NCBI RefSeq assembly: GCF_003334335.1
Contig: NZ_QOWQ01000004.1
DNA length: 64,000 bases
Origin: Escherichia coli
Lineage (GTDB): Bacteria > Pseudomonadota > Gammaproteobacteria > Enterobacterales > Enterobacteriaceae
Direction: 5' to 3' (one strand)
Within the stretch, counting starts at the first letter, position 1. The number at the start of each line of letters is the position of its first letter. The translations under genes and the position numbers were made by a program. Below the pieces are notes generated by a model that ran no database searches, was not told the DNA's origin, and saw nothing but the letters and a program-made list of their open reading frames with translations. Below, piece after piece: positions 16,695 through 18,759 of the stretch.

Positions 16695-17699
16695 GTGAAA
16701 CTGGATGAAATCGCTCGGCTGGCGGGAGTGTCGCGGACCACTGCAAGCTATGTTATTAACGGCAAAGCGAAGCAATACCGTGTGAGCGACAAAACCGTTG
16801 AAAAAGTCATGGCTGTGGTGCGTGAGCACAATTACCACCCGAACGCCGTGGCAGCTGGGCTTCGTGCTGGACGCACACGTTCTATTGGTCTTGTGATCCC
16901 CGATCTGGAGAACACCAGCTATACCCGCATCGCTAACTATCTTGAACGCCAGGCGCGGCAACGGGGTTATCAACTGCTGATTGCCTGCTCAGAAGATCAG
17001 CCAGACAACGAAATGCGGTGCATTGAGCACCTTTTACAGCGTCAGGTTGATGCCATTATTGTTTCGACGTCGTTGCCTCCTGAGCATCCTTTTTATCAAC
17101 GCTGGGCTAACGACCCGTTCCCGATTGTCGCGCTGGACCGCGCCCTCGATCGTGAACACTTCACCAGCGTGGTTGGTGCCGATCAGGATGATGCCGAAAT
17201 GCTGGCGGAAGAGTTACGTAAGTTTCCCGCCGAGACGGTGCTTTATCTTGGTGCGCTACCGGAGCTTTCTGTCAGCTTCCTGCGTGAACAAGGTTTCCGT
17301 ACTGCCTGGAAAGATGATCCGCGCGAAGTGCATTTCCTGTATGCCAACAGCTATGAGCGGGAGGCGGCTGCCCAGTTATTCGAAAAATGGCTGGAAACGC
17401 ATCCGATGCCGCAGGCGCTGTTCACAACGTCGTTTGCGTTGTTGCAAGGAGTGATGGATGTCACGCTGCGTCGCGACGGCAAACTGCCTTCTGACCTGGC
17501 AATTGCCACCTTTGGCGATAACGAACTGCTCGACTTCTTACAGTGTCCGGTGCTGGCAGTGGCTCAACGTCACCGCGATGTCGCAGAGCGTGTGCTGGAG
17601 ATTGTCCTGGCAAGCCTGGACGAACCGCGTAAGCCAAAACCTGGTTTAACGCGCATTAAACGTAATCTCTATCGCCGCGGCGTGCTCAGCCGTAGCTAA
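16695..17699 (+). CDS. cra: catabolite repressor/activator (LacI family)
   Basis: 334-aa ORF; [25 protein letters not shown]; starts at GTG in the sequence (ORF track shows it as M). Confidence 0.9.
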
Positions 17700-18219
17700 G
17701 CCGCGAACAAAAATACGCGCCAGGTGAATTTCCCTCTGGCGCGTAGAGTACGGGACTGGACATCAATATGCTTAAAGTAAATAAGACTATTCCTGACTAT
17801 TATTGATAAATGCTTTTAAACCCGCCCGTTAATTAACTCACCAGCTGAAATTCACAATAATTAAGTGATATCGACAGCGCGTTTTTGCATTATTTTGTTA
17901 CATGCGGCGATGAATTGCCGATTTAACAAACACTTTTCTTTGCTTTTGCGCAAACCCGCTGGCATCAAGCGCCACACAGACGTAACAAGGACTGTTAACC
18001 GGGGAAGATATGTCCTAAAATGCCGCTCGCGTCGCAAACTGACACTTTATATTTGCTGTGGAAAATAGTGAGTCATTTTAAAACGGTGATGACGATGAGG
18101 GATTTTTTCTTACAGCTATTCATAACGTTAATTTGCTTCGCACGTTGGACGTAAAATAAACAACGCTGATATTAGCCGTAAACATCGGGTTTTTTACCTC
18201 GGTATGCCTTGTGACTGGC

Positions 18220-18249
18220 TTGACAAGCTTTTCCTCAGCTCCGTAAACT
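18220..18249 (+). promoter_or_regulatory. candidate Pmra promoter (-35 TTGACA, -10 TAAACT)
   Basis: TTGACA at 18220..18225 and TAAACT at 18244..18249, 18-bp spacer, just upstream of mraZ. Confidence 0.5.
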
Positions 18250-18256
18250 CCTTTCA

Positions 18257-18281
18257 GTGGGAAATTGTGGGGCAAAGTGGG
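18257..18281 (+). promoter_or_regulatory. three direct GTGGG repeats at 10-bp phasing (MraZ operator-like)
   Basis: GTGGGAAATTGTGGGGCAAAGTGGG immediately downstream of candidate Pmra; consistent with MraZ autoregulation site. Confidence 0.5.
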
Positions 18282-18300
18282 AATAAGGGGTGAGGCTGGC

Positions 18301-18759
18301 ATGTTCCGGGGAGCAACGTTAGTCAATCTCGACAGCAAAGGGCGCTTATCAGTGCCTACCCGTTATCGGGAACAGCTGCTTGAGAACGCTGCCGGTCAAA
18401 TGGTTTGCACCATTGACATTTATCACCCGTGCCTGCTGCTTTACCCCCTGCCTGAATGGGAAATTATCGAGCAAAAATTATCGCGTCTGTCGAGCATGAA
18501 CCCGGTTGAGCGCCGTGTGCAGCGCCTACTGTTAGGTCATGCCAGCGAATGTCAGATGGATGGCGCAGGTCGATTGTTAATCGCGCCAGTACTGCGGCAA
18601 CATGCCGGGCTGACAAAAGAAGTGATGCTGGTTGGACAGTTCAACAAGTTTGAGCTGTGGGATGAAACAACCTGGCATCAACAGGTCAAGGAAGATATCG
18701 ACGCAGAGCAGTTGGCTACCGGAGACTTATCGGAGCGACTGCAGGACTTGTCTCTATAA
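18301..18759 (+). CDS. mraZ: transcriptional regulator MraZ
   Basis: ORF trimmed to [19 protein letters not shown] (tandem MraZ/SpoVT-AbrB domain); first gene of dcw cluster. Confidence 0.9.

Follow-up and report, generated by a model that had tools for sequence, protein, structure and literature searches.

Introduction

Complex upstream control regions, in which a secondary promoter is combined with an architectural site, are a familiar kind of element. For the Escherichia coli ilvGMEDA operon, the Hatfield laboratory reportedly described tandem promoters, ilvPG1 and ilvPG2, with an IHF site and with starts ~72 bp apart. Here we analyze the 601-bp spacer between cra and mraZ, at the head of the cluster of division and cell-wall (dcw) genes, in a 64,000-nucleotide stretch of E. 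coli DNA (contig NZ_QOWQ01000004.1 of assembly GCF_003334335.1; hereafter the window). This spacer is probably an extended, conserved and phased cis-regulatory region of the dcw (mra) operon, not spare DNA or a hidden gene. Like ilvGMEDA, it has a weak upstream promoter (P2) and a strong downstream promoter (Pmra), along with an A/T-rich, putatively architectural site (block C) whose placement with respect to Pmra appears to matter. It differs in that the two mraZ starts are 230 bp apart and the candidate site lies midway, ~135 bp upstream of the Pmra start.

Pmra is the promoter of the first nine dcw-cluster genes, and the matching of its output to growth is still not understood. Textbook accounts and older mapping give mraZ a 38-nt leader, with few sites, right at the core promoter. 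MraZ is said to bind the GTGGG repeats there, the MraZ operator, in work by Eraso et al. in 2014. The known inputs (MraZ operator, PdhR and CRP) share the operon and promoter with the elements described below, but all lie within ~60 bp of the Pmra core (18200-18281) and none explains blocks A, B or C. A further relative is the Rhodobacter sphaeroides mraZ leader with its small RNA UpsM (PMC5089854), which resembles the E. coli region in starting ~270 nt upstream of mraZ, in standing at the head of the dcw cluster and in being conserved within its family. In E. coli, by contrast, the main promoter lies inside this stretch, there is no terminator, detected stable RNA or resemblance in sequence, and the behaviour of the blocks is that of DNA elements.

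Results

The window belongs to E. coli K-12. The genes cra (16695-17699) and mraZ (18301-18759) are both on the plus strand, and the spacer between them (17700-18300) corresponds to 89033-89633 of E. coli K-12 MG1655, whose coordinates equal the window position plus 71333. The spacer sequence is found in 5,424 of 5,426 complete E. coli genomes, with 100% identity to K-12-type strains. RefSeq MG1655 has zero annotated features in 89033-89633, and no annotated feature underlies the spacer match among the 30 E. coli genomes listed out of the 5,424 matching. The G+C content is 42.9%, compared with 54.9% for cra and 52.1% for mraZ, and falls to troughs of 33-36% at 17750-17950 and 18050-18200. Pmra and three GTGGG MraZ boxes take up just the final ~81 bp. 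An earlier sequence-only reading was therefore correct in describing a spacer of about 600 bp with known content in the last ~80 bp only (here 601 bp, of which ~81 bp are explained) and an AT-rich remainder (42.9% G+C against 52-55% in the flanking genes).

We compared 80 loci, one genome per species, fetched with MraZ as the query and aligned with MAFFT; entropy was calculated over 79 sequences from ~25 genera, and interval lengths over 77 species. In the Enterobacteriaceae, cra lies directly 5′ of mraZ in all 78 loci that contain cra, and the spacer measures 553-733 bp. Three blocks, A, B and C, have an entropy of ~0, while the stretches between them are near saturation and synonymous sites in the flanking cra codons show heavy substitution in that alignment. 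The main features are as follows.

17884-17904, no strand assigned: block A, TTG(C/T)ATTATTTTGTTACAT, also TTGYATTATTTTGTTACAT; the core at 17889-17902 is near-invariant
17992-18055, plus strand: block B, CTGTTAAC ... ATGTCCTAAAATGCCG-N5-GTCGCAAACTGACACTTTATATTT; near-invariant
17992-18027, plus strand: P2 promoter, with CTGTTAAC as the -35 region (17992-17999), TAAAAT as the -10 (18016-18021), a GCCG discriminator and a start at 18026/18027
18031-18055, plus strand: downstream part of block B, GTCGCAAACTGACACTTTATATTT, positions +5 to +29 of the P2 transcript; entropy ~0
18103-18141, no strand assigned: block C, TTTTTTCTTACAnnTATTCATAACGTTAATTTGC, made up of a T6 tract (18103-18108), CTTACAnn and TATTCATAACGTTAATTTGC (18117-18136)
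18220-18257, plus strand: Pmra, with -35 TTGACA (18220-18225), -10 TAAACT (18244-18249) and a start at 18256/18257; 10/12 matches in the promoter scan

Blocks A, B and C are each unique, with no extra copies in the 64-kb window that might point to a regulon. The distances separating the blocks are held much more strictly than the sequence. The interval from the block B -10 region to block C has a median of 103 bp and a standard deviation (SD) of 0.69 bp, and the interval from block C to the Pmra -35 has the same median with an SD of 0.71 bp. Other intervals are looser: block A to block B (median 141 bp, SD 4.4 bp), Pmra -35 to the ATG (81 bp, SD 4.1 bp) and the cra stop to block A (175 bp, SD 32 bp), with the ilvH-cra spacer as a control (179 bp, SD 38.5 bp). 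The lengths of the block intervals differ by ±1 bp, not in multiples of three. Block C, summarized as a T-tract followed by ATTCATnnnnTTAAT, stands halfway from the P2 -10 region to the Pmra -35: with the centre of its core (18124) as zero, P2 has its -10 at -105 bp and its -35 at -129 bp, and Pmra has its -35 at +99 bp and its -10 at +123 bp. Because short blocks that include a second, weak promoter are held at near-fixed distances from Pmra, the spacer is probably control DNA and not a hidden gene.

One lineage departs from this pattern. In the host-associated Enterobacteriaceae bacterium ESL0689 (L086, locus 880-1500), blocks B and C are lost, with Pmra and the MraZ boxes retained. The region can evidently change, which argues against mere low mutation as the reason for its conservation elsewhere. 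This lineage is also a natural deletion variant in which dcw expression could be compared.

Loci outside the Enterobacteriaceae were found with an approximate Yersinia-like MraZ query and compared ungapped, anchored at the Pmra -35, giving 90 unique upstream regions in all. The added genera were Erwinia, Pantoea, Yersinia, Serratia, Pectobacterium, Dickeya and Photorhabdus, and block C is in register with Pmra in all seven (TTATCATGACGTTAATTT in Yersinia, AATCACAGCGTTAATC in Dickeya). Across the 90 regions, the 13-mer at the core of block C starts 100-104 bp upstream of the Pmra -35. A minus-strand alaE gene (PF06610, L-alanine exporter) separates cra from mraZ in Yersinia, Serratia, Pectobacterium and Dickeya (L088-L091, locus ~440-930) and is missing from that position in Enterobacteriaceae, Erwinia, Pantoea and Photorhabdus; the spacing of block C to Pmra is kept either way. 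Block B is less widely preserved. The P2 TAAAAT is in register in Erwinia and Pantoea, and Yersinia and Serratia have a TAAAAAT variant displaced by 1-2 bp in the ungapped comparison. Pieces of the block likewise survive, GTCGCA in Erwinia and Pantoea and TTGCAGA in Yersinia and Serratia, and a block A-like sequence is found near the same place in Yersinia and Pantoea. Block C is present even in families without block B, and is by this distribution the older of the two. Since its distance to Pmra is kept without block B or with alaE inserted, block C is tied to Pmra at the DNA level, which, with its age, favours a DNA-level function over an RNA-level one.

Published transcript data place starts beside these blocks. 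Among the plus-strand entries of the Cappable-seq table (PMC4782308, Additional file 1), the only strand considered, starts occur at 89143 (score 6.2; window 17810), 89237 (score 2.1; 17904) and 89360 (score 9.4; 18027, or 18026 if the file runs one base high), in addition to the Pmra start at 89590 (score 27.2; 18257). Each of the three upstream starts in that table falls at the 3′ edge of a conserved block. A massively parallel reporter-tiling study likewise found that the mraZ promoter region holds 'two distinct promoters', giving no coordinates. The sequence-only reading had offered additional promoters as one option for the unexplained DNA, and these starts and the reporter result support it; both transcription starts and conserved blocks, the two of its proposed checks that could be made, exist beyond Pmra.

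The start at 18026/18027 is assigned to P2. It lies 5-6 nt past TAAAAT, within the 5-9 nt expected for a primary (triphosphate) 5′ end, 230 bp upstream of the Pmra start and 274 nt upstream of mraZ. This -10 matches TATAAT at 5/6 positions and is invariant in Enterobacteriaceae and Erwiniaceae. The candidate -35, CTGTTA (17992-17997), is separated from it by an 18-bp spacer and is conserved but weak, with a 3/6 match to TTGACA. In SMRT (single-molecule real-time)-Cappable-seq (PMC6131387), mraZ operon transcripts start at 89588/89589 only, with none from P2. Among the Term-seq entries examined (PMC7815308), no 3′ end falls between 83641 and 89783 on either strand, and a terminator scan of the spacer predicted none. 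As no operon transcript or 3′ end from P2 was seen and its start appears only in sensitive data, P2 is probably a second, weak promoter of the sigma-70 type, giving an RNA that is rare, or else short and unstable.

Block C was compared with the IHF consensus, WATCARnnnnTTR with an optional A-tract of 4-6 nt in the other half-site, as in the lambda H′ type. An IHF-like 13-mer, ATTCATAACGTTA, lies at 18118-18130, and its core reads WATCAY-N4-TTA. It departs from the consensus at two positions in 81/90 sequences and at one in 8/90; the single mismatch is typical of Yersinia, Serratia, Pectobacterium, Dickeya and Photorhabdus, and two mismatches of the Enterobacteriaceae. An A/T run of at least 4 nt lies 4-18 bp upstream of the 13-mer in 89/90 sequences (T6 in E. 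coli, A5 in Yersinia); in block C the tract of 4-6 nt lies 8-9 bp 5′ of the core, which is the layout of IHF H′ sites. Block C thus resembles lambda H′-type sites in its C-A and T-T-A positions and 5′ A/T tract, and is unlike them in its mismatches and in a pyrimidine at position 6. Tentatively, we regard block C as a protein-binding architectural site for which IHF is the best guess, if less likely than not. The known motifs of other factors were also compared: PurR, Cra, CRP, FNR, LexA, TyrR, ArcA, OmpR/RstA, CpxR and PhoP/PmrA gave a half-site at best, as did DnaA, Fis, Lrp, TrpR, GntR, DeoR, PdhR, MarA and sigma-24/28/32/54. Blocks A and B are not known to match any factor.

Discussion

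The conserved blocks, their rigid and approximately symmetric spacing, the published start sites and the lack of a conserved open reading frame (ORF) are direct observations. Individual start sites were already public, and two promoters had been noted by the reporter study; the searchable literature, queried with several names for the spacer and with labels in the style of RIL-seq (RNA interaction by ligation and sequencing), contains no description of the conserved blocks or of their spacing. From cra to mraZ, the proposed layout would run from the cra terminator through two weak starts beside blocks 0 and A (block 0 is described below) to P2 in block B, then block C, then Pmra. A DNA-bending protein, IHF or another, would bind block C, and the sharp bend would set the geometry between Pmra and an upstream partner. 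As this partner, either RNA polymerase at P2 or a factor bound to the +5 to +29 stretch could act together with block A. P2 would then serve as a regulatory input, by competition with or delivery to Pmra or by providing a long untranslated leader, and not as a second main promoter. A geometry fixed by a bend would account for distances that are conserved between blocks when the sequence between them is not.

A bolder version, which we consider something of a long shot, places block C at the apex of a protein-induced DNA U-turn, a conserved 'promoter hairpin'. Read from the coordinates, the two arms are 103 bp each (SD 0.7 bp, ~25 genera), and since the distances from the centre of block C are nearly equal, a U-turn would put the P2 and Pmra core promoters side by side and antiparallel. 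If so, polymerase or a factor at P2, with its G+C-rich discriminator, would directly set the output of the division operon and link growth state to dcw transcription.

Several points weigh against an extended control region built around P2 and block C. A consensus promoter scan of the spacer predicts Pmra and not P2, because the -35 match falls below the scan threshold. P2 appears in a single transcript dataset, and in a less sensitive start-site survey Pmra was the only start detected in either E. coli or K. pneumoniae, with a leader of 45 nt. The second promoter of the reporter study, given without coordinates, may lie elsewhere. A plain promoter leaves the conserved +5 to +29 of block B unexplained, for which an operator or an RNA 5′ element can be named. 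At block C, 13 other 13-mers in the 601-bp E. coli spacer match the IHF consensus with no more than two mismatches; judged by sequence, the match appears to be at chance level for such AT-rich DNA and alone is not evidence. Position 6 of the core is a pyrimidine in 86/90 sequences where the consensus has a purine, and the AATTT after the core is conserved even though IHF does not need those bases. The searchable literature holds no binding data for IHF or another protein at blocks A, B or C, and no paper linking IHF to mraZ.

The blocks might instead be conserved because the P2 transcript is a structured leader or small RNA of ~115 nt, a counterpart of the Rhodobacter mraZ leader and UpsM, in which block B (GCG-UC-GCAAA-C-UGAC) pairs with the end of block C (GUUA-A-UUUGC-UU-CGC). 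There is precedent in the 268-nt R. sphaeroides mraZ leader with UpsM (PMC5089854), and the absence of P2-started operon transcripts from SMRT-Cappable-seq means that P2 RNA may be short. In single-sequence folds of the first ~117 nt, a 12-bp interrupted helix closes in almost every one of 31 species, with 94.8% pairing and with one base pair that runs through the RNA-type series G-C (12), G-U (10) and A-U (5). Over +1 to +117, fold z-scores average -1.74 on the plus strand; the average is -0.94 for the reverse complement and about -0.4 in the next segment. Yet RNAalifold returns no consensus structure for the whole leader or for +1 to +117, and since both of its strands are invariant, the named helix scores no higher than shuffled controls. 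The most telling point is that block B carries no compensating change in those lineages whose block C has diverged in its 3′ part (Pluralibacter gergoviae, strain 4M9, Apirhabdus, Erwinia, Pantoea). Families that lack block B still have block C, the variable region has weak complementarity to block C, equal on both strands, and a length kept to within 1 bp would be unusual for variable RNA loops. An Rfam scan of the spacer to E = 10 gave sR084 as its sole match, whose 15 bits fall far short of the gathering score of 95 (chance level), and there is neither a predicted terminator nor a 3′ end among the Term-seq entries examined. We therefore consider a structured RNA unlikely, though not negligible. 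The small RNA that the sequence-only reading named as an option is unsupported, if still conceivable, for want of an Rfam match, a 3′ end in those Term-seq entries, a predicted terminator or a P2-started mraZ operon transcript. A separate candidate, a small RNA running from 17810 to block A, was rejected, as hairpins precede the T-rich block in some genera only.

Coding explanations are less probable still. A small hydrophobic protein could be read through block C on the plus strand (MTMRDFFLQLFITLICFARWT, 18090/18096 to 18154), or another short spacer ORF could be translated. The block C frame is open in all species, with a core of FFLQ(I/L)F(I/M)(T/A)LIC and several substitutions that are conservative or synonymous. 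However, about one-third of the distinct sequences have no in-frame upstream ATG, GTG or TTG (for example Enterobacter, Buttiauxella and Escherichia sp.), the C-termini differ, and variability by codon position (0.42 / 0.25 / 0.49) follows a non-coding pattern. The Yersinia-type block C survives with changed residues in this frame, and an in-frame TGA interrupts the minus-strand MNxCKK frame of Buttiauxella, Cedecea and Dryocola. Traced by tblastn and by frame, the seven spacer ORFs are each intact in 23 of the 79 sequences or fewer. The two ORFs listed by the sequence-only reading do exist, 17865-18068 on the plus strand (67 aa, GTG start) and 18120-18338 on the minus strand (72 aa, TTG start), but are intact in only 8 and 23 of the 79. 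With each spacer ORF intact in at most 23/79, and with a block C frame that often has no start and shows no codon periodicity, the small-protein option of that reading is unsupported; ORF decay, missing starts and the lack of periodicity together lead us to reject a conserved one, and we give translation of any of these frames almost no weight. Scarcely better placed is a minus-strand small RNA or antisense gene that would explain blocks A to C, with the cra hairpin, which has its U-run on the minus side, as its terminator. The hairpin at 17714-17745 does have an A-run before it and no plus-strand T-run after it. Against this, the Term-seq entries contain no 3′ end on either strand across 83641-89783, the promoter scan finds no promoter-like site on the minus strand of the spacer, the reverse complement folds no better than expected, and the A-run is Escherichia-specific, with ordinary cra terminators in other genera. 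It is equally hard to believe, as with the coding frames, that the spacer is mostly non-functional AT-rich DNA whose blocks reflect low mutation or recent common ancestry. The upstream 500 bp indeed have no annotation and no known binding or expression phenotype, but between-block sequence and cra synonymous sites are heavily substituted in the same alignment, the blocks and their spacing persist across families, and the ESL0689 lineage lost blocks B and C while keeping Pmra.

If the upstream 300-400 bp do form a conserved and rigidly spaced control region that includes a promoter, part of the regulation would be missing from any reporter fusion or engineered strain limited to the proximal ~100 bp. 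Blocks A, B and C would then offer three short, defined DNA baits for the missing regulators. The best-annotated bacterial genome still has conserved non-coding elements without an entry.

Further features of the region

The remaining features of the spacer, from the cra end to the Pmra core, are as follows.

17714-17745, plus strand: cra terminator hairpin, TACGCGCCAG / CTGGCGCGTA; a 10-bp stem, inverted repeat, 100% complementary
17780-17798, plus strand: block 0, semi-conserved and palindrome-like in the alignment; consensus AGGATnnATCCT / AAGAATATTCTT
Start at 17810, plus strand: weak promoter overlapping block 0; -10 TATTAT (17798-17803) as assigned from sequence
17904, plus strand: weak start at the block A 3′ edge; score 2.1 among the plus-strand Cappable-seq entries
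17916-17935, no strand assigned: block A2, TGCCGAATTAACAAACACTT; moderately conserved
18200-18243, no strand assigned: gel-shift probe with weak PdhR binding (PMC3265435)
18211-18226, no strand assigned: CRP-like TGTGACTGGCTTGACA, read from sequence, overlapping the Pmra -35
18257-18281, plus strand: three GTGGG direct repeats 10 bp apart, read from sequence; conserved in all families examined

At the 3′ end of cra, SMRT-Cappable-seq (PMC6131387) places the end of the cra transcript (87968-89082) at window position 17749, right after the hairpin, and also detects partial read-through from cra into mraZ-rsmH-ftsL. The hairpin has no T-run 3′ of it on the plus strand and is preceded by the A-run AAAAAT (17709-17714), so that its sequence would suit intrinsic termination on the minus strand better than termination of cra. 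This A-run is limited to Escherichia. Other genera have ordinary cra terminators formed by unrelated hairpins, and in the MAFFT alignment the initial ~80-150 bp past cra consist of species-specific terminator-like hairpins.

Block 0 is a short palindrome in many genera, for example AAGAATATTCTT in Citrobacter youngae and GGATTAATCC in Escherichia sp. ESNIH1. In the weak promoter of the 17810 start it falls between the -35 and the -10, as an operator might.

The Pmra start maps to 89589/89590 in three sequencing-based datasets, giving a leader of 44-45 nt. The published PdhR site (PMC3265435) is at the Pmra -35, not at block C. The CRP-like TGTGACTGGCTTGACA matches 9/10 positions of the CRP core TGTGA-N6-TCACA and is found in Escherichia and Citrobacter only. 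[quoted passage not shown] Within mraZ, position 89783 (window 18450) is listed both as a plus-strand start in the Cappable-seq entries (score 1.7) and as a plus-strand 3′ end, classed 'internal', in the Term-seq entries, and a further Cappable-seq entry marks a start inside mraZ at 89806.

A two-codon mini-ORF, ATG TCC TAA (18001-18018), follows a Shine-Dalgarno-like GGGGAAG, and its stop overlaps the P2 -10. Serratia AAGGAAGTAATGAGTTAA also encodes M-S-stop, but downstream of a P2-like -10 and out of register with the E. coli mini-ORF.

Two entries of the comparison set are likely mislabelled. The locus titled Chryseobacterium sp. 18061 (L022) has the same coordinates and the same Cra and MraZ identities as Citrobacter sp. 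18056 (L020). AP025685.1 (L082), whose MraZ is named Salmonella enterica Choleraesuis, has a diverged 744-bp spacer unlike that of close E. coli relatives.

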